Shown: positions 3,970 through 56,809, counted from the whole stretch's first letter. The stretch: DNA of 60,870 nt, filler included, from Globobulimina sp. (GCA_003354225.1; 15 parts of 15 records of this genome joined end to end with filler, not necessarily neighbours in it); one strand, 5' to 3'. The notes: generated from the letters alone by a model not told the origin. Numbers and translations: made by a program.

Positions 3970-4069
3970 NNNNNNNNNNNNNNNNNNNNNNNNNNNNNNN
4001 NNNNNNNNNNNNNTTAATTAATTAANNNNNNNNNNNNNNNNNNNNNNNNNNNNNNNNNNNNNNNNNNNN
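3970..4069. other. Artificial contig linker N44-TTAATTAATTAA-N44. Identical copies at 8038-8137, 12106-12205, 16173-16272, 20239-20338, 24305-24404, 28371-28470, 32436-32535, 36500-36599, 40562-40661, 44624-44723, 48686-48785, 52748-52847, 56810-56909
   Basis: 14 identical 100-nt spacers with stops in all six frames. The segments between them decrease in length from 3969 to 3961 bp, as expected for size-sorted contigs. Confidence 0.99.
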
Positions 4070-7879: not shown

Positions 7880-8405
7880 ACAATGTAGTGACTTAATATG
7901 GTTTAGTCCCGTTTAGAATATTTGAGCACTTTTCCAAAAGTCAATCTCTGTGCAAGGATAAGTTTTGTGACATAAAAGTAAAACTGTAAAACAATGTTCG
8001 CGTTTTCCTTTATTAACTTTCACTGATTTCTTTGATTNNNNNNNNNNNNNNNNNNNNNNNNNNNNNNNNNNNNNNNNNNNNTTAATTAATTAANNNNNNN
8101 NNNNNNNNNNNNNNNNNNNNNNNNNNNNNNNNNNNNNGAAGAACAAAGAAACAAAGAAAAAAGAACAACAAAAAAAAAGTAAATAAATACAAATCCGACA
8201 CCACAAAAAATACTTTGAATAAACAACAAATTAAACAAAACAGAACGAAAAAGATATAAAATAAAATTACGTATATTATATATTAACAAACACCAAAAAA
8301 ATCCAAACACCAAAAAAATTGGAGTGATACTTTAATCACAATATATACGGACAATATGCTAAAAAAAATAATGTATGCTAAGAATGTACAATTCAATTTT
8401 ATAAA

Positions 8406-16172: not shown

Positions 16173-16272
16173 NNNNNNNNNNNNNNNNNNNNNNNNNNNN
16201 NNNNNNNNNNNNNNNNTTAATTAATTAANNNNNNNNNNNNNNNNNNNNNNNNNNNNNNNNNNNNNNNNNNNN

Positions 16273-17357
16273 TGGTGCAGCCGTAGTTGGTGCGGCAGTG
16301 ATAGGTGACACGGATGGATTATTGGTAGGTGGCATAGTTGGATTGAGTGTTGGCGCAAATGTAGTCGGTGCTGCAGTCGTAGGTGATACAGATGGACTAG
16401 CCGTAGTTGGTATAATCGGTGTAGGTGCGGTAGATGGATTTGGTGTGTCTGTGGTTGGATTAATGGATGGTGCTGTGGTAGGATGTTGTGAAGGGGTTGC
16501 AGATGGTTGATTTGTTGGTGGTGAAGTGCTTGGAGCTGACGAAGGGTTAATAGTTGGTATGGTGGGTGGAGTTGGGGTTGGATTAATGGTAGGTTGCGTT
16601 GTAGGATTACTTGTGGGTGAGTCTGAAGGGAATATGGATGATTTTATAACGATATTCCAGAATGTACCATTGCCTCTGTTGTAACTACCTGAATATTTAT
16701 CGCTCATCCACCAAATAGGCACTGTTTGACCAAGGAGCACTGACTGTGTTGGCTCTACGTCGAGCCATGATTGAGTCCAATCTATATTGGGCCATCCACC
16801 ATTGACAGGTTGATCATTATTGGTCACATCCACTGTTAGTTGTGTCTGGTTAAATGCTATTCGAACATGATAGGAGACCCCTTTGGTGATATCACCATAA
16901 TCATTTAACGATTGCTCTGCTTGGCAATTAGTATCACCATCTGACACAGACACATGCATTGAATCTCGGTCATGTGTTAACCAGAAAGATGGATATCTAC
17001 TTCCTTCACCATAGCAATCCTTAGAGTATGCAGGAGCTCCAACACGAAAGAAATTTTCATAAAAACCACGCGTAGGATCCGAAGTGCGGTTGTGCCATAT
17101 GAAATCTATATAGATAATAGATAAAATATACCTATATAATACAATATATAGTATTAAATACCAAATTCCGCACTCATTACTTCTCCTATTCGAATCTCCC
17201 CAAATGATTGTGCTTGCACGGGGATAAACTGAGAGCCAGGGGCGGAGCGCCATATTTCGTGGTTTGGATATACCTCTTTTTCCCATGTATTAAACGCGTT
17301 GCATTTAAGTATGTATATTAGAAAGAGTATGTGTAACCATGTTGGTAATATTGACAT
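16273..17357 (-). CDS. Secreted/surface protein: signal peptide, lectin/LamG-like beta domain and Pro/Thr repeat stalk, 3'-partial
   Basis: Signal peptide MSILPTWLHILFLIYILKCNA, intron 17106-17161 restores the frame, SRYPSFWL motif, PTxxP repeats. Confidence 0.8.
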
Positions 17358-17701: not shown

Positions 17702-20067
17702 TTAATATTCACTGTTATCGTATATTTCACTCTGTGCCGCACCCAATTTAATCCTCAATAACTTTTCAAACTCATTCCGCGGCCCGATTTTCGGAATCAA
17801 TTCCTTCATATCACACCGTTTCAAATCGCACAACCTATGTTCCGTCACTTTGTTCCGTTTAAAAGTATTCAAATACACTCTCCAGTCTTCGTCATCAATC
17901 TGCAACAACGCCATCGTGATCCATTCATAGCCATCATCATTAATATCAATATCAATATCAATGGGTAGCTTAACATTATACTCCACACTCAAACTCTCGC
18001 CGTCATTCAGCGTAACCGTCGTATTTGTCCCTGGCAATATCGGCAACGTTTCATCATCATATTCATCATCATCTAATATCTCCAGATTCTGTTTTTCCTC
18101 CTCTTTGCCGTCAACAATTTCAATATGTTCATGCACCGCATTGTTATCTGCAATCACCAACAAATTGCTCACTCTCTGCAAGTTCTGCGTAGTGGGGCCC
18201 GGTAATGGTATCTTATACTTATGAATCACCACAGCCTGTTCCATTACGGCTTTTATGTATTCTTCCTCATTGCTCTCAGACATTAAGTATTTCCGCATTG
18301 CACAGTTCAATCTGGAACCTGCATTGGATGGGCTCATAGACTCGGTGCGGGTTAATATGGTCTCATCCTCCATACCATCGATGCCAACGTTTTGTGTCTC
18401 GCGCATGGAAGCGTTCTCATCATCGTCATCCACATCGACATCCTGTGTATCGTCCGATATCTCGTTTCCTTCGTCGATCTCATAGATTTTAGATATATTG
18501 GATATATTGGATGCGTCTGGCGACACTTTGATGACATATCTGTCGTCGAAGCAAGGTATGGGTGCCATGTGCGGTGATATCGATATATGAGCTGCTTTCT
18601 GTGGGATACGTCTACAAAAATCCTGTTTGCCTGGTTTCAATGGGATGACATCGTTGTTTATAATTTCAAATTGTGCGTCTTGATCCGCTGCATCTTCGCT
18701 GGCGTTCTCAAGCTGAAATGACAATTTTTTGGCATGCGAGCGTAACTTTTTGTGTCCTTTCTTGATATCGCCGCATTTCTTTACAGTGATTAAAATCAAA
18801 CAGGTGCCGATTATGCAAGAGGCGATGCCTAAGATTAGTAAATATAATACTTGCGACGCATCGATTTTTTCGGGTTCTTTGTTTAGTACAAAGTTAATTG
18901 AAGTTGTTTCAAACTTAATTGTAATATGTTTTGTGTTTATTATTCTTATTAGAAACGGTAACAGTATAATTTTTAACTTCTACTGGCTGAATAGTTACGG
19001 TTGCCATTGTAGGCTGTATATCATTTATAGTTTATAGCATGTGTATATATGGTATATCTTTATTATATGTAATCTGATATTAACTGTGGAGGGCTGCAGT
19101 GTTGGAAACGCCTTTTGTTTATCGTTTATGTGGTATTTGATGTAATTGTGTATACCTTATATAATTATATGAAGTGTTCCTAACTGTTGGATTTTCAGTG
19201 GTTGGCGAGAAAAGTAAATATGTTGGATTCTGCGCAAAAAAAATCATAGTGTCAAGCATAAAAAACAAAATAATATCACACTAAACTTTTGATGGTGAAT
19301 TTGTTGGTAAATGTGATGGAGAATGCTTTTTATATTAATTAATATTTGTATGTAATGTGGATTAGATGTGGAGCAACACATAAATGACAAACCGTTGTTT
19401 TGGATGGAATTGGTGTCGGCGAATGTGTTGGATATTTAGTTGGTGAATGTGTAGGGCCTATCGTGGGAATGGGGGGATTTGTTGATTGAATACTTATGTT
19501 CCATACAGATACATTAGCGATGACATAGGGCGCAGTCCAATAATCAGATGCTATGTACACATTCATTAATTGATTGATAAAGGATGGTTTCGTTGGCGAT
19601 GTTCGTTTTTGATCCAGTACAATGGTGTCATTTATTGTCATATAAATAAAATCATCTGTAAATTGTATAAATACAGAATATATTTTCTTTTCTTTGATAG
19701 TGTACGATGCCAATCGCCATCCTTGACCGCAACTATCCTGTTGGGAGACTGATAAATGAAATGTATTTTGCATGTTATCAATCCATAATGATGGATAGCG
19801 ACTATTTTGGGCAGTGCATCCACCACTGGTTGAGGCCCAGCCGATGCGCGTTATTTGCTCATAAACTGATGGTGTGTTTGAAACTCGGCCATACCATTCA
19901 ATCATTAATGACATTGTGATATGTTGACGTAAACGTATTGTACCATATTTAGTTGATGATATAGGTTTAAATTTGGATGTAGATTGCCAGTATGTGTCAC
20001 CATCACTATTAAATGTATTTAACCCAGTTGTTATCCATGGTATCAAGAAAATAAATAGAATGCCCAT
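17702..20067 (-). CDS. Putative single-pass receptor: signal peptide, lectin-like domain, Pro/Thr stalk, TM and cytoplasmic SAM domain (multi-exon, joins inferred)
   Basis: The 5' ORF is paralogous to the 16273-17357 gene (SRYPSLWI). Small PT-coding exons at 19000-19330. TM LYLLILGIASCIIGTCLILITV. C-terminal SAM-like YLNTFKRNKVTEHRLCDLKRCDMKELIPKIGPRNEF. Confidence 0.6.
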
Positions 20068-20338
20068 GCCAAAGCGTATGCAAATTTTAAAAAACAATTA
20101 ATAGAGTTTTCCTATTTGACCTTGATTTTGCTCATAAACAATTTTTTTTAATCATTTGTGAATTGTTAGAGAAAAAGCTTAAGTAAATGCTCGTCTAATC
20201 CTTATTTATAATACAGTACGATCTTTGAGCATTCTAATNNNNNNNNNNNNNNNNNNNNNNNNNNNNNNNNNNNNNNNNNNNNTTAATTAATTAANNNNNN
20301 NNNNNNNNNNNNNNNNNNNNNNNNNNNNNNNNNNNNNN

Positions 20339-20479
20339 AAAATCATGATAATTTAAGTTTTGAATATGTTTCATATGGCGTGCTATGCTGCATGCTTCTT
20401 TGCGAACATCTTTTGTGACCTTTGTATTGTCCCATCGTTTTTTGATGGCAGCTGTTGCATTTTTTTTAGTGAAAGGCAT
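20339..20479 (-). CDS. Basic hypothetical protein, 3'-partial, divergent from the transposase
   Basis: ATG-initiated frame (MPFTKKNATAAIKKRWDN...) open to the contig end. Confidence 0.3.
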
Positions 20480-20814
20480 TCTAAAATTGAGAAATTTTGA
20501 AAAAATAAAAAAAAAAATAGATTTGAAAAAAATCGTCAGATTTGATAAAATTACGTCACATTCTCAAAACGCATGCATTGCGACGAATATCTGTCTCAGA
20601 CAAAAAAATTTGAATTTCGTGACTCTGCAGCTATTGAACTATACCGTAATGATTTTTTTTTTCCATTTCATTCATACAACTTTTTTTTTTGGTATGCATT
20701 TTCATCACTGCATATTTTTTATAATTTTGCAAACTAGTAAAAAAAAAAAAAAGATTAAATTATGATTTTCTTTAAATTTGAGTTGTAAATGTCACTCAAA
20801 AATTAGTCCAAGCA

Positions 20815-23326
20815 ATGTCTACTAGAAACAAACGAAAACGACCAGAATGGGTAAACCAACCAACCAACCAGCCACCAGCAACCAACAACCAACAACGAAA
20901 ATCAACAGAATGGGTAACTACCCCAAATCTTTCAATAACCGATTATTTAGTGTTACGAAAAGAAAATGATACATTTTGTATTATTGCAAATGATCATAAA
21001 TACAATACAAATCGGTATCATGTCATGCATAATTCAAAAAAAAAAACCATTCATTTTTATTGGCGCTGCAACCAATACAGAAAAGGATGTGATGCGCGTT
21101 TTACCACCGAATTTACAGAAGGAACATATTATGGTGATTTGGCGTATGGCACAGTTATATCTACAGCGAAAATAACAGAGCATGAGCATCCTGCATTATG
21201 GACACGTGCGACCGCGGAGAAACAATGGTTCATGGACCAAGTCAAACTCGAAATGAAAACAGGAAAATCTGGTAAAGATTCATTTGACGAAATGAGTTTA
21301 TGTCATCCGATTGCATGTAACTATGTACCTAATTTTGGACATTGCGCGAATCAAATATATTATGACCGACGAAAACGGAATTTAATACAACCCAAAACAA
21401 GAGAAGACAGAACGAATATATTTAAAGATTCCAAATTCAGTGTTACATATTTTTCACGTCAACTTATTGAATCAAAGGAATCAAAGGAATCAAAGGAATC
21501 AAAGGGATCATCAAATACCCAGAAGAATGACCAACAAATATCCATCCGATATCATCAACAACAAGAAATAACTGACTTAAATCAAGAACATTTTCTAATT
21601 CGACATAAATTACATAATTTACAACAAGAAAATAAAAATATTGTATCACATATATTCTCCGACCGCTTACCTGATATGTTTTTTGGTTCCATTTATTGCG
21701 GAACAACAACCGCTGGTTCGGTTGTTTTAGGTGGTAAACATGGTCAATATATCATCAGTAGGTGTGAGAAAATTTCGATTGATGGTACATTTCCTACATT
21801 ATTAATGTCTTTATTAGCGAAGAAATTTGGTGAATTACTTAAACCATTTTCAAGCGTTATATTTATATCTGCGCATTTTAGGGCACCAAATGTGAAGTAT
21901 ACGTCTCTTCAATTGCCAATAGCGATGATTTTAACGGTAAAGAGAACAAGAATTGAATACAACGCGGCGGCTACAATTTATTTGCAGTCCGCTAAAAAAC
22001 ATTTTGAGAAAGAAGGATATAATTTAAGTTAAATATTTCAAATTTTACCACATATATAAACCAGCATTTGATATCAATATAGATATTAAATCTATGGCTG
22101 CAGATTCTGAAATTGCATTGGATGCTTTTCAAACTGTATTTGGTATCTCCCAAAGAGATAGTTGTTTATATCATTATATAATGGATAACGTAAAATATAC
22201 TTCGACAAAATGCCATTTGTTGACATTATACAGATCCAAAGAGAATCCTTTATTTAGAAAAGAATTGTATTGTTATTGGCTTTGCGTTTTTTTAGAACCC
22301 GATGAATGGGAAAGTTTTTGTGTCAATCAACAAGTTTGTATATTTGATGTCGTTCCGGATGGTGTGGATAAAACATTAGCAATAATAAAACAGTTAGATT
22401 ATCATCAAAGAATTTGGAGAACACAAAAAAAAAAGGATATAAATTTTTATGACCGGACCATTGATTTAACTAATAATTTGATGGAATGTTTCAATCGCAT
22501 TTTTAAAGTGAAAAATGGTAAAAAGATGGATATGTATCAATTTCTGACTGCGTGTCAAAGAATATTAGCTATGTCATCGTTAACATTTCGAAAAATGGAA
22601 TTATATTCTAAACAAGATAATGACTATGGATATGATACAACTTCAATATTTAACACGTCAATCAAACAACAACGAGAAACTAAAATATGTATGAAACAAA
22701 TTAGAGATCAATACGAAAGAATACCTAAAGATGCACGGGATTTTACTGTGCAGAAACGATTTATTAACAATGTATATTTCACATTAAAACATCGTTTTGA
22801 CAAAATCAAGGATTTAAATGACATTGATTTCGCTGCAGACGATATTCAACAATTATTAGATCAACCTCAATCGATGAATTTGGATTTGAATGGACCAGTC
22901 GCAATGAATTTGGATTTGGATTTAGTCAACAAATATAATATTTGCAAATATCCAGAGACTGACATATTTAAACAATTATTGAATAATATCGGATCAAAAG
23001 AGTGCTGCGAATCATTTCATGCAGAATTGTTAGGTTCTCGATTCTGGTCAAATCTTTGCGATATAACTCATTTAAATGGTCATTTTGCGATACAATCAGC
23101 CGCAACAAACATAGTATCAATTGACGAGGAGATAAATCAATCGTTTATTGGCGCTGCAGTATGTATTAGAATAGAAGGGAAAAAACGAAAATATCCTGGA
23201 ATTTTAGTATTTTATGAATATCCTCTAATTTTACATTTCCAACCAAATAATACCTTGATGAAAACCTGGGCTTTATGGGATATACTTGATGTCAATAAAA
23301 TTTCATTGTTTGCAATTCATTTATAA
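20815..23326 (+). mobile_element. Mutator (MULE)-superfamily DDE transposase, ~818 aa, two exons
   Basis: FLYWCH/WRKY-like finger FYWRCNQYRKGCDARF..EHEH, D1 in ISIDGTF, D2 in MAADSE, CxxH in SCLYHY, E in TNNLMECFNR. Intron 22028-22082 (GT..AG, 55 nt) joins ORFs 20815 and 22094 in frame. Confidence 0.88.
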
Positions 23327-23465
23327 TTTATCACACTATTTAATAATATTAATGCATGCCAGTTTAATTTACTAGCCCATTTGTGTGTTTCGTCTTAGAA
23401 AAAAAAAGTTGCAATGTTTTCACCTAAGTACACTCATTTTCATCGAATGGCAAGTACTACATTTC

Positions 23466-23570
23466 ACATCAATATGAACCATAATTATTACATCAATAAT
23501 TATTACAATCTCAATAATTATTATTACATCAATACGAACCATAATTATTACATCAATACGAACCATAATT
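23466..23570. repeat. Imperfect tandem repeat, ~24-bp unit ACATCAATA(C/T)GAACCATAATTATT
   Basis: Near-full copies at 23466, 23526 and 23550, with truncated copies in between. Confidence 0.85.
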
Positions 23571-23614
23571 CAAATATTTGTATTACTTAAAATTAAATAT
23601 ATCGCTACAGAATA

Positions 23615-24289
23615 ATGACAAATATATGCGACATTGTACAACAAATCTTGGAGGAAAAAACTATGTATATTGCAAATTTAGAGTTTATATCAAATAGCAG
23701 AATACGAGTTATTATCAAAGAATTAGCATTACAACCAAAAGTAAATCCAGGAACAATGCATGGATTAAATTCAGCATTTACAATCGGTTCGATTCGAAAT
23801 GGTCAGGCAATTATACCAGGTTATTCTCCAATTAATCTTCATGGACATCTTTTGTCATTTGGTCCAGCTGGATGCGGTAAGACCACTCCTATGGATTTTC
23901 TTACATTTCCATACCAACAATCTCGTGGATTAACATTAAAATATGGTTTAATACATGGATGCATCACTGCTGATGATCATCGAGAATTAAGAAATGCATT
24001 GATTTACAAAGACAAAGAAAATCAGAAAGCAAAACCAAATTCAAGTCTTAATTCCAGCAATATGTCAATTCAATCTGAAGTTATTGCTATTGACATCTTA
24101 ATTGACGACGTAAATGATGCGGAAATAATTTTAGATTCAGAAAATGATGCAACATATATTACTGAGATCATAGGTGGAGTGGAAAGCGATTTCACAAGAA
24201 TTAAATCCGGGAAATTACAAATTGATCCAGCCACAGAAAAAATGTTATTATGCACATATAAACAAAGCACCTTTGTAAACGCAGTTTGA
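23615..24289 (+). CDS. P-loop NTPase, DUF3987/YfjI-like (probably continues past the contig end)
   Basis: Walker A in LLSFGPAGCGKTTPM, preceded by PINL and followed by FLTFP, which resembles the DUF3987 pattern 'PxNLy..lvg.sgsGKS.a....l.P'. Confidence 0.55.
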   Translation: MTNICDIVQQILEEKTMYIANLEFISNSRIRVIIKELALQPKVNPGTMHGLNSAFTIGSIRNGQAIIPGYSPINLHGHLLSFGPAGCGKTTPMDFLTFPYQQSRGLTLKYGLIHGCITADDHRELRNALIYKDKENQKAKPNSSLNSSNMSIQSEVIAIDILIDDVNDAEIILDSENDATYITEIIGGVESDFTRIKSGKLQIDPATEKMLLCTYKQSTFVNAV

Positions 24290-24937
24290 CCCCGTCGTTT
24301 ACAGNNNNNNNNNNNNNNNNNNNNNNNNNNNNNNNNNNNNNNNNNNNNTTAATTAATTAANNNNNNNNNNNNNNNNNNNNNNNNNNNNNNNNNNNNNNNN
24401 NNNNCAGATTATTCAAAATAAAAACATTGAAAGTCAAAATTGAATTCTTAAAGGTTGTGTTTCATCGGGAACCATTAACATTTTATTATTAACCTATTTT
24501 CCTTCCTTTTCATTATATATGTATTTATTTACTGCATCTGTTTTTAATTGTTTCATTGTCAGCTGGCGCAAAAATTAGTAGAATGAGTTCATAGGTTATA
24601 AGCGGACGGATTATAGCGTTGGTTTGAGATCTGTGTTCAGTTTGACATCTCAAAACAATTAAAAAAAAACGAAGTTCTGAACATTTCCAAAACTTCACAA
24701 GTGTGTGACATCAACGTATCATATAAATGCTTTTCACAGTGATTATAAGAATTCCTGTGATGACACTGAATATGAGGGACTGAATATGAGATCTAAATTT
24801 AATTACAGTTATTACACACAACGCAGAATTCACGTCACTAAGACTCACTACTTATCACACAAAATTATAGAAATATGAAGAAATAAAAAATATATTATGA
24901 AATAATTAGCAATAAATTAACGATTGTGAGTAAACAT

Positions 24938-27025: not shown

Positions 27026-28370
27026 ATGGCAGCTTTCGAAGGTTGTGAGACAGAAAACACAGAAGAAGGTCAAACAAAAATAAATGAGGAAGGATTGGTT
27101 TACTATCTTAACGAGGCTCAGAAAGAAGATGATAATGATAACACACATAACTTAGATGAAATTAGCAATGTAGCAGATGGCAAAGAGGAGGAATCAGAAC
27201 CTGAAATGGTAAATGTATCAGATATTATTTCTACCCCAGCCACGCGTCAAAGGGATGATTTGAAGGTTAATGAACAGATTAAAACAGATACTACAAAGTC
27301 TCAACCATCCAAAACAGAGTCAAACATTTATTTATTTGGTGTTTTGGTTGTTTTTTTAGCCATTGGTATTGGTATATTTTTAATGTTTTCAGCAGGACAA
27401 AATATAACAGAACCTGATCCAATATTTATTTGTCCAAATAAGGGAATGGTAAAATATATTGATATCCAACAATTACATGCAACCATCACAGCAAACAATA
27501 CGAAGCAGCGTAGAAACACTACATTTTATTGGGATGTCACTCAAAATGAAACTGAATGTGATTCACTGCAAAGTTATGGCGAATTCGCGGATACATTGAA
27601 GTTAGCATGGGATTGGGATTGCAGTCCACATGACATGACAATAAAATTGTATATGGAGGCAGAGGCAAACAGTAATATTTATAACCAAACATGTAACATT
27701 AATGTCATCTTTTATGAGTCTCCAGTTTTTGGCATTGATTTGGGTACAACATATTCATGCATTGCGTTTCAAAAAAGTTCAAAAAATATTGACAATAGAA
27801 GACAGACAAAAATTGTGGTTGTGGATAAAATATTAAATAGATATTGTATTCCTTCCGCTGTTTATTTTGGCAGTAATAAAAAGATAGAATTTGGTGTTGA
27901 CGCTTTGGATAAGCTACAAAGTGATGGTTTAAATGTTGTGTATGATATTAAAAGAATTATTGGCAGAGATACGGATGATAAAGAAATTGAAGAATTTAAA
28001 AAACATCATTTATTTAAAATTGATGATGATCATAAAAGTGTTTTTCTTCCAAATACAAATGGAACCGTGTTATTTGAACAAATATTATCATTGATATTGG
28101 GATATTTGGTTGAAACAGCCAGTATGGAATGGTTTAGAAATGAAAATCGACTCTGGTATATTCGAGATGTGGTTGTTTCGGTCCCTGCCTTATTCCACAA
28201 TGGACAACGAAAAGGTATGTTGTATGTGAGTTTAAATGTGTGCTGCAATAACAAATACACATTTATATATACATTAGCAATACGAAGCAGCTGTCATTTG
28301 GCAGGATTAAATCCAATCAAGTTAGTCATTGAACCTTCCGCTGGATCGTTAGGTATGATACATATATATA
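27026..28370 (+). CDS. Atypical Hsp70-family protein with an acidic N-terminus and TM anchor, 3'-partial
   Basis: VFGIDLGTTYSCIA, IPSAVYF, DIKRIIGR, VVVSVPALF and AGLNPIKLVIEPSA. TM YLFGVLVVFLAIGIGIFLMF. Intron 28215-28277. Confidence 0.85.
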
Positions 28371-54656: not shown

Positions 54657-56809
54657 ATGTCCAAACGCAATTCAGGAATTGCATTTAAATCAAACTTATC
54701 ATTGGCTGCAGCAAAGCCATTGTCTCCCAACGAATTATCACAATCATACACCCCCGCAATTAATAAGTATGCTGACACCGAAATAAGAGAAGCATCGGCA
54801 TCGCCAACGCCAACCCCAGGGAAATCAGACCATATTAAAGTAATTTGCAGGTTTCGCCCGAAAAACTCCAAAGAAAGAGCTGAGGAAAAAAGACAAAATC
54901 TGCCCACCACGCAAGAAATCGAGGTGTACAATGAAGGCAAATCATTGGAGGTCCCGCGCAAAACCAAAAACAAGCCCAAAATGAATTTCACATTGGATTA
55001 TATCATATGGTGCGATGTGTCGCAAGAACAGACTTTTGTGAAATTAGCAGCCGACACTGTTAACAGTGTGATAGAAGGCTACAACTGTACGATATTCGCA
55101 TTTGGCCAGACTGGCTCCGGCAAAACGTACACAATGTTCGGCAATGAGAATCTGAATAAAATCGAAGAACTAGGCATCATTCCACGTTCTGTCGACTATA
55201 TGTTTAAATTGCTAAATGCGAGTAAAAATATCCTCAAATACCAGATATCGCTGTCGATTTGCGAAGTGTATAAGGAAATGTTGCGGGACTTGTTGACTTC
55301 TGAAAAGAGTAAAAACCGAAAGCGATTAGAAATCCTATCCGCTGGGAAAGAGATTCGCGTCAAAAATTTGACTGAAAAGCAGTGTGACTCTGTTGGTGAT
55401 ATATTGAAATATATAGTGATGGCTCAAGGGAACCGAGCGAAGCAAACCACTGACTTCATAGGGCATGATTCCTCGCGCTCGCATTGTGTGGTTATGATAT
55501 CCATCACACAGCGCCTATTGGATGATACTATAAAATTCAGCAAACTCAATTTTGGGGACCTGGCCGGCTCGGAGTTGGCAGCTAAAACACATGCAACTGG
55601 CAGCAATTTGAAAGAAGCGGGCAAAATACATCAAGGCTTGTTAGCTCTGGAAAATGTGATAAATGCCTTAGTGGAAAAGAAGAAACATGTCCCATATAAC
55701 GACAGTAAGTTGACGCGATTATTAGCCACTTCCATTGGGGGCAACAGGTTCGAATTTGTGTGTTTGTGTATAATTACTATAATATATATATGTTATTGGT
55801 ATATAGCAAAACCACATTGTTAGTGACATGCTCGCCAAGTATCTGGAACAGAGACGAAACAATCTCTACTTTAAGGTTTGCAAAACGAGCAAAGAAAATC
55901 AAAAACAAAGCTAAAATAAATCGAAGAAAGACCCGGGAACAGTTAGAAGCGAGAATAGTTTATCTGGAACAGGAATGTCTGAAAATGAGAAAGAAATTAA
56001 ATAAGCAAAAGTTTGGCGGCAAGTTTCACAGCGCAGTGGATTTTCTGAGCTCGGATGAGGCCAAGGAACGCGTGTTTGGACTGTCCGCAGAGGAGAAGGA
56101 AGAAGCGGAGCAATTATTGATGGCGAAGGATAATGAAATCAATGGGCATTTGGATGAGATTATCAAATTGAAAGATTTAATCACGAAAAAAGATGATCAG
56201 TTGACGCAGATCGAAGATGATTTGAACAATAAAAATGAGGTCGTGTATGAGTTCGATCGCGAGAAGAAGGAATATGTGCAAACTATCAATGAATTAAATA
56301 GCAAATTATCGCGTAATGAGAGTGAAATTGATAAACTGCAAACTAAATTGACTGAAAATATCGAATTGCAGACTAAATTCACGCATCATACCGAGAACCT
56401 GTCCTCCATCGTCAATGACACTGTGAAGGATTCGTCCACCGCCATGGTCTCCGCATTGACGGAAATCACCAAACAACAACAGGACTTTTACAATTTTTTG
56501 AAAGGAATGAGCAATAATATCGAGAAGATCCACGAGAAGCAGGTGAGTGTGGAAAGGGATGTCAACGACAGATTTGACGATATCAATCAGTTGTTATTGG
56601 GAATCGGCATAAATAACAATAATTATGCCGGCGGCTTGGGGTATAATGCTAACTATGAGCCAGAATTGTCAATGAATTCAGACGACGATGGTCCCGCTGG
56701 CTCTGGACATCACGCACAGCAATCTTTCAATTTTGATGAGGACGAGTTTGATTTTGGAAATAGGAAATTGTCCGTTGCATCGTTGGTGTTATCGCCTGAA
56801 CAGTTACAG
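54657..56809 (+). CDS. Kinesin (N-terminal motor, kinesin-1-like), 3'-partial
   Basis: IKVICRFRP, FGQTGSGKT, SSRSH, DLAGSE, HVPYNDSKLTRLL, intron 55748-55806, ETISTLRFAKRAK and coiled coil. Confidence 0.95.

Follow-up and report, generated by a model that had tools for sequence, protein, structure and literature searches.

A probable FLYWCH-type Mutator transposase gene and a neighbouring orphan gene on one contig of an AT-rich eukaryote

Introduction

Does one short contig hold the inside of a large mobile element that brings its own replication protein, or two genes with nothing to do with each other? The question is raised by positions 20339-24304 of a window of 60,870 bases (the window being the whole stretch of DNA analysed here). 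An earlier note on this DNA had described there a spliced transposase of the Mutator superfamily (MULE), a tandem-repeat tract and a co-oriented gene with a Walker A motif, and had proposed that they could be the interior of a compound or replicative Mutator-type element encoding a helicase akin to the DUF3987 proteins. Our analysis favours, with moderate confidence, a simpler arrangement in which a single-copy FLYWCH-type MULE transposase gene of the DDE (Asp-Asp-Glu) kind, with the Phantom/Muta architecture, would stand beside an unrelated neighbouring gene.

The window is a chain of 15 unrelated contigs, sorted from the longest (3,969 bases) to the shortest (3,961 bases) and joined by spacers (3970-4069, 8038-8137 and so on) that consist of 44 N, a 12-nucleotide word with stops in all frames and a further 44 N. 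Adjacency within the window is thus without biological meaning: positions 20339-24304 are exactly one contig of 3,966 bp, and nothing outside them is a physical neighbour of the genes discussed below.

Results

Structure of the candidate transposase gene

Two open reading frames (ORFs) on the plus strand, at 20782-22032 and 22028-23326, lie in differing frames and overlap by 5 nucleotides. They can be joined by a candidate phase 1 intron of 55 nucleotides on the plus strand (22028-22082, GTTAAA...ATATAG, with GT at 22028 and AG at 22081-22082); an alternative acceptor AG at 22063-22064 would give an intron of 37 nucleotides. The spliced model from ATG 20815 encodes 818 amino acids. Exon 1 (20815-22027, plus strand) provides residues 1-404 and the first base of codon 405, and comprises a KRKR-rich N-terminus, a FLYWCH finger and an ESK repeat, as well as D323, the first of the catalytic aspartates. 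Exon 2 (22083-23326, plus strand, stop codon included) carries D412, C432xxH435, W516 and E539, with about 280 additional C-terminal residues.

The local arrangement of stop codons speaks for an intron rather than a frameshift. A TAA at 22025-22027 ends frame 2 and another at 22030-22032 ends frame 1, so that a simple insertion or deletion could join the two frames at 22028-22029 only, which is exactly on the GT. The candidate intron also resembles a 59-nucleotide GT...TATATAG intron of the kinesin motor gene in the same window (55748-55806), the removal of which restores the kinesin motif LGGN/SKT (the slash marking the splice). An intron of this size and make-up would thus seem typical of the organism. 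The kinesin intron is, in its own right, a sign that the organism has very short introns.

Signature residues and domain assignment

All the residues expected in the catalytic core are found in order along the plus strand of the spliced model. The motif IDGTF lies at 21778-21792 (codon of D323 at 21781-21783), AADSE supplies the second aspartate D412 (codon 22103-22105), CxxH (C432xxH435) lies at 22153-22164, and TNNLME supplies the glutamate E539 (codon 22484-22486). With W516, the spacings are 89 residues between the first and second aspartates, 23 from the second aspartate to the histidine, 23 from the tryptophan to the glutamate and 127 from the second aspartate to the glutamate. In MULE and hAT transposases, a (C/D)xxH motif stands 15-45 residues past the second D, and a W ahead of the E (PMC5499845). 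The DDE triad described here, with its CxxH at +20/+23 after the second D and W516 23 residues before the E, agrees with this layout. When the protein was shuffled 20,000 times, the ordered pattern D/D/CxxH/W/NxxExxN never arose, and it is absent from the 23 other ORFs of at least 300 amino acids in the window; this test is post hoc, its last motif having been loosened once after a first pattern missed the real sequence.

Upstream of the core, a FLYWCH-type zinc finger (WRC...C...HEH; 20971-21111, plus strand, residues 53-99) is matched by the Pfam family PF04500 with an E-value of 9.9e-05 and 22.9 bits, just below the curated cut-off of 23.6. Comparison with a protein-language-model atlas points in the same direction. 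Exon 1 scored 0.93 with an unnamed cluster, 0.91 (170 shared features) with a cluster in which 42% of the members carry FLYWCH and 12% MULE, and 0.90 with one in which 74% of the members carry FLYWCH, while MULE clusters followed at 0.82-0.85, including the ZSWIM1-3 RNaseH-like/MULE clusters at 0.85. Exon 2 scored 0.77 at best, a MULE cluster coming seventh, which is to be taken as a lead only.

Taken together, the FLYWCH finger, the Muta1-like geometry of the catalytic residues and the language-model neighbours suggest that the 818-residue product is probably a transposase of the Mutator superfamily. The gene is apparently intact, and is probably a very divergent FLYWCH-type MULE or a domesticated derivative of one.

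Copy number and the upstream repeat

Depths given here are those of assembled contigs from one public run, of unrecorded kind and low coverage. The three runs of one sample differ sharply, as one contains 91% of the sampled words of our contig and two contain next to none.

Positions 20765-24268 are covered by three exact contigs with depths of 6.64, 10.2 and 6.18. Low-complexity snippets aside, neither the transposase body nor the downstream gene has a second copy of at least 80% identity in the one public run, and a tBLASTn search with the three proteins of the contig revealed no relatives in the other 14 contigs.

The left end of the contig is of a different kind. A stretch at 20339-20737, which runs off the left contig end, reaches a summed contig depth of 95.8-212.4, where the remainder of the contig has 4-11. 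A number of short contigs match it with about 90% identity (some 10% divergence). This contrast in depth identifies the 400 bp upstream of the transposase as a multi-copy, diverged repeat. Neither its own contig nor any of the other 14 holds an inverted copy of it, and no hits came from scanning the contig with Rfam or for transfer RNA (tRNA) genes, so that it is not a recognisable tRNA-derived short interspersed nuclear element. The chances that it is the terminal or subterminal region of an element, rather than an unrelated repeat, seem to us about evenly balanced. We also observed that the repeat ends near a run of A at 20738-20752.

Within this repeat lies the short divergent ORF that had already been noticed on the left, and which we recovered as 46 codons on the minus strand, from ATG 20476 to the contig edge (20339-20476). 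Its single Pfam match (E 0.043) is noise, and 11 variant sites, among those listed, are spread over codon positions 1, 2 and 3 as 4, 3 and 4. So even a spread gives no sign of coding constraint, and the ORF is probably not a conserved coding region, as far as its sequence tells.

The previously noted tandem-repeat tract is present, but covers only 87 bp. It is an AT-rich repeat (23484-23570, no strand assigned) with a period of 18/24, about three copies and 75-80% matches, and sits within the 288-bp spacer after the transposase stop, where depth (6-9.5) is not elevated.

The downstream gene

A second gene begins at ATG 23615, on the same strand as the transposase gene and 288 bp past its stop codon. 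What the contig holds is the 5' part of a gene from an orphan family (23615-24304, plus strand), namely 224 codons, an in-frame TGA at 24287-24289, five more codons and the contig end. The co-oriented Walker A gene of the earlier note is thus present, with its motif GPAGCGKT at 23861-23884 (plus strand), but only in its first 224 codons and with a stop in frame.

A HMMER scan of 1.84 billion representative sequences returned 9 hits, 8 of which are real relatives of the downstream protein; P0007, which is cadherin-like and repetitive, was rejected as a member of the family. Among the relatives P0001 is the best; it shows 54% identity over all 224 residues and is 401 amino acids long, from which it follows that the contig carries only the front part (about two thirds) of the gene. 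P0001 and P0004 are labelled as coming from a foraminiferan transcriptome (Bolivina argentea, EukProt), and the remaining ones stem from assemblies of metagenomes or of sequencing runs. The TGA aligns with an arginine kept in P0001, P0002, P0003, P0008 and P0009, and the five codons past it (PRRLQ) are still similar to the relatives. The public contigs end at 24268, where depth is 4.1, and the TGA is 17 nucleotides from the contig end. Similarity of the frame beyond the stop and the thin contig end suggest either a nonsense change, as in a pseudogene, or a read-end error.

The Walker A pattern is [AG]xxxxGK[ST]. It is kept in four of the nine family sequences (the window protein, P0001, P0006 and P0009), while the second glycine is replaced in P0002, P0003, P0004, P0005 and P0008, and only the lysine and the following serine or threonine are invariant in all nine. 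The ILIDD of the window protein, which could pass for a Walker B motif, falls in a gapped and variable stretch and is missing from the closest relative; the nine-sequence alignment has no conserved Walker B. Structure prediction did not bring the family closer to a known fold, the AlphaFold model of P0001 made with that alignment having a predicted local distance difference test (pLDDT) score of 38.8, too poor for fold comparison. A profile search of the PDB gave a best E-value of 0.056, over the P-loop stretch only, and PHROGs and NCBIfam gave no match beyond sub-threshold P-loop noise. Relatives of the family were not found in scans of viral or metagenome contigs. The downstream gene may thus be described, at most, as a member of a rare, lineage-restricted orphan family in which an AAA+-like GPxGxGK[ST] motif has been lost in many members, and its predicted product would at best bind nucleotide.

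The proposed relationship with DUF3987 is refuted by these sequences. PF13148 (DUF3987) matched none of the nine family members (the window fragment to E 1, the eight relatives to E 0.1), although the same tool recovered Escherichia coli YfjI, our positive control, at 1.1e-107 and 360.8 bits. An hhalign comparison of the nine-sequence family alignment with E. coli YfjI gave a probability of 0.4% over 9 aligned columns. Together these results rule out a DUF3987 identity for the downstream protein. Neither was any helicase, SF3 or AAA+ family matched by the downstream family in Pfam, the PDB profile search, PHROGs or NCBIfam, and the suggestion that the contig encodes a helicase thus finds no signature to rest on. 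The DUF3987 literature, among the matches listed, concerns bacteria, archaea and their viruses.

The other contigs of the window

It had been remarked that no recognisable housekeeping gene is present. This holds for the 3,966 bp in question only, as the other contigs carry ordinary eukaryotic genes, coding for kinesin, a myosin head, PPP5, RAB3GAP2, TatD, prolyl oligopeptidase, tyrosinase, carboxylesterase, GST and an Hsp70-like protein. Judged from these encoded proteins, the host is a eukaryote. Its DNA is AT-rich (about 27-40% GC across 2-kb windows of the stretch). Stop-to-stop ORFs of at least 150 amino acids occupy 78% of the window bases, and a gap of 75 bp separates the ORFs of PPP5 and GST on a different contig; both figures indicate a compact genome, in which the 288-bp distance between the transposase gene and the downstream gene means little. 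Codon usage and the GC content at third codon positions of these two genes fall within the span set by 11 of the window's host ORFs, and so do not discriminate.

Two further observations concern contigs other than ours. One contig has two minus-strand ORFs, at 16225-17289 and 19339-20097, which share an SRYPS[FL]W...H[VL]SVS core and, after it, long tails rich in Pro, Thr and Ser; from their sequence, they resemble paralogues of a secreted or mucin-like type. The Hsp70-like ORF (27026-28369, plus strand) has a Pfam match restricted to residues 234-397, ahead of which lies a 230-residue acidic N-terminal extension that includes a hydrophobic stretch.

Discussion

The explanation that we consider the more probable is that the contig holds two separate things, a single-copy FLYWCH-type MULE DDE transposase gene of the Phantom/Muta architecture and, next to it, an unrelated gene. 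By analogy with Muta1, the N-terminal FLYWCH finger would bind the ends of the element, and the RNase-H-like core, in which C432xxH435 and W516 would assist D323, D412 and E539, would move it by cut and paste, with a hairpin formed on the flanking DNA. The multi-copy stretch of 400 bp upstream may then be a terminal region common to non-autonomous derivatives, for which the case is about equally strong either way. The downstream gene is most likely a host gene of the usual kind that lies nearby in a densely packed genome. It has no mobile-element signature in profile searches, and both it and the transposase body are at a depth of 6-10 and represented by exact contigs only. A compound or replicative element, as proposed in the earlier note, thus finds no support: no termini are seen, the one run yields no second copy of at least 80% identity, and the spacing of the genes is ordinary.

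Several results weigh against this explanation. The MULE family PF10551 did not match either exon alone, even with E-values up to 10; the intron splits the domain between D323 and D412. The spliced transposase of the earlier note is supported by its motifs, by the sub-threshold finger (22.9 bits) and by ORFs that can be joined from GT to AG, but not by PF10551 on single exons. Homologues of the exons were not found in three word-indexed searches (one with exon 1, two with exon 2), and since such searches require shared five-residue words, these empty results are weak evidence. Homologues of exon 2 were not found in metagenome or viral contig scans either, PDB sequence searches with exon 1 and exon 2 returned chance-level weak matches only, and the AlphaFold model of exon 2 alone (pLDDT 35.2) is too poor for fold comparison. 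Terminal inverted repeats (TIRs, which in MULEs often exceed 100 bp) and a target site duplication (TSD, 8-10 bp in MULEs) are not visible in the 3,966-bp contig; no inverted pair in 20339-24304 rises above AT-rich chance, in agreement with the earlier note, which saw no termini in the contig. As the contig is short and its left end is inside the repeat, the termini may lie outside it. Finally, should the upstream repeat be the element's left terminal region, the low depth of the spacer after the transposase would place the right end beyond 24304, and the downstream gene would then be inside the element.

A first alternative is that the transposase has been domesticated, and that we are looking at an immobile, single-copy host gene derived from a MULE, like other FLYWCH- or MULE-derived regulators. 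The gene indeed appears in exact low-depth contigs only, with no second copy of at least 80% identity, its ORF is intact with a host-like intron, and its codon usage is inside the host-gene range. No TIRs were found in the 480 bp upstream of it or in the 288 bp downstream, and at 818 amino acids, against the 504 of Muta1 (PMC5499845), it has an extra C-terminal stretch of about 280 residues. On the other hand, every catalytic and auxiliary residue is in place, and a multi-copy repeat adjoins the gene as the terminal region of an element would. Orthologues that would reveal conservation as a host gene were not found in the three word-indexed searches, and the single-copy call comes from one low-coverage run, which is a weak basis. 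We regard domestication as unlikely, yet as the strongest of the alternatives.

A second alternative, close to the original proposal, is that both genes lie within one larger Mutator-type element, the P-loop protein being an accessory or, in a strong form, a helicase. The genes are co-oriented and 288 bp apart, the downstream gene belongs to a rare and fast-diverging family, and MULEs with a second ORF of unclear function are on record (PMC6446971). To this must be added the depth profile, as the upstream 400 bp are multi-copy and the spacer after the transposase is not, so that a left end upstream would call for a right end past 24304. Against these points, the downstream protein is not DUF3987 and matches no helicase, SF3 or AAA+ family; its Walker A is kept in four of nine sequences with no conserved Walker B, and its reading frame, as assembled, is interrupted by a stop. 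A second copy of either gene is missing both from the one run and from the other 14 contigs, genes commonly stand close together in this compact genome, and a full-text literature search turned up no paper on a MULE with a helicase as its second ORF. That the orphan gene rides on a Mutator element as a new accessory family, with the right end beyond the contig, is therefore distinctly improbable, and that its product is a helicase serving replicative spread is far more doubtful still.

Least probable of the three readings is that the gene is no transposase at all, its motifs having arisen by chance in a lineage-specific protein or its intron having been imagined in a decayed pseudogene: no curated family is matched at threshold (FLYWCH falls 0.7 bits short and PF10551 is unmatched), the three word-indexed searches gave no homologues and exon 2 models poorly (pLDDT 35.2), but the five-part ordered signature was absent from all 20,000 shuffles, the finger is matched at E 1e-4, independent language-model neighbours carry FLYWCH and MULE, and the window in which an indel could join the frames is just 2 nucleotides wide and coincides with the GT.

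If the contig does hold two separate things, one more, very divergent FLYWCH-type MULE transposase would be added from a poorly sampled AT-rich eukaryote, which would be useful to transposon surveys and would not change the view of how Mutator elements work. The more striking idea was that a Mutator element might bring a helicase-like replication protein of its own. Its chief support falls away, since the downstream protein is not DUF3987 and has no helicase signature. Some interest remains in the downstream family itself, which is very rare (8 real relatives among 1.84 billion representatives) and whose P-loop appears to be decaying among its members. Were the downstream gene nevertheless internal to the element, it would represent a new family of accessory proteins on a Mutator element, from a lineage of protists (perhaps the foraminifera) not yet surveyed for MULEs; the term Rhizaria is absent from the main text of the 2019 MULE survey (PMC6446971).

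Comparison with known systems

The likeness to DUF3987/YfjI proteins comes down to a P-loop-like motif and a location near a mobile-element gene. The layout of the contig, a transposase gene with a further ORF of unclear function, is known from MuDR and other two-ORF MULEs, among them MuDR with mudrB, Mutyl with mutB, Hiun with vanB and vanC, and MULE-Co, the second ORF of which is given as unknown (PMC6446971). The downstream protein differs from mudrB, mutB, vanB and vanC in that it resembled none of them in the searches run and has a P-loop-like motif, and it is unlikely to sit inside an element.

With FLYWCH transcription factors, ZSWIM, FAR1/FHY3 and MUSTANG, the gene has in common that these are single-copy, intron-bearing and TIR-less genes derived from MULEs, and many co-options of MULE and FLYWCH sequences are reported in animals (PMC10027918). 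It departs from such domesticated genes in that its catalytic triad and auxiliary residues are all present, and no orthologues were found.

The closest parallels are with Muta1 of the mosquito Aedes aegypti, a transposase that has been tested, and with other MULEs of the Phantom group, known from invertebrates. Muta1 has an N-terminal FLYWCH finger, two exons and the catalytic residues D214, D283, H307, W401 and E419, which gives spacings of 69 residues between the two aspartates, 24 from the second aspartate to the histidine, 18 from the tryptophan to the glutamate and 136 from the second aspartate to the glutamate (PMC5499845, PMC5225508). The gene described here is longer (818 against 504 amino acids), with 89 rather than 69 residues between the first two catalytic aspartates, and unlike Muta1 and Phantom it leaves PF10551 unmatched on either half, has no detected homologue and shows no TIRs, subterminal repeats or TSD within the contig. 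It would share with Muta1 a transposase gene of two exons, if the candidate intron is accepted. Terminal regions of the Muta type are common to hundreds of non-autonomous derivatives (PMC5225508), and here too a non-coding repeat is far more numerous than the coding body, the link of this upstream repeat to the element being about evenly poised. Phantom elements of aphids carry a mini-satellite after the ORF (PMC6446971), as the tandem tract at 23484-23570 follows the transposase ORF here. The gene also shares with Muta1 and Phantom a CxxH whose histidine lies 23-24 residues past the second aspartate and a tryptophan about 20 residues before the glutamate.

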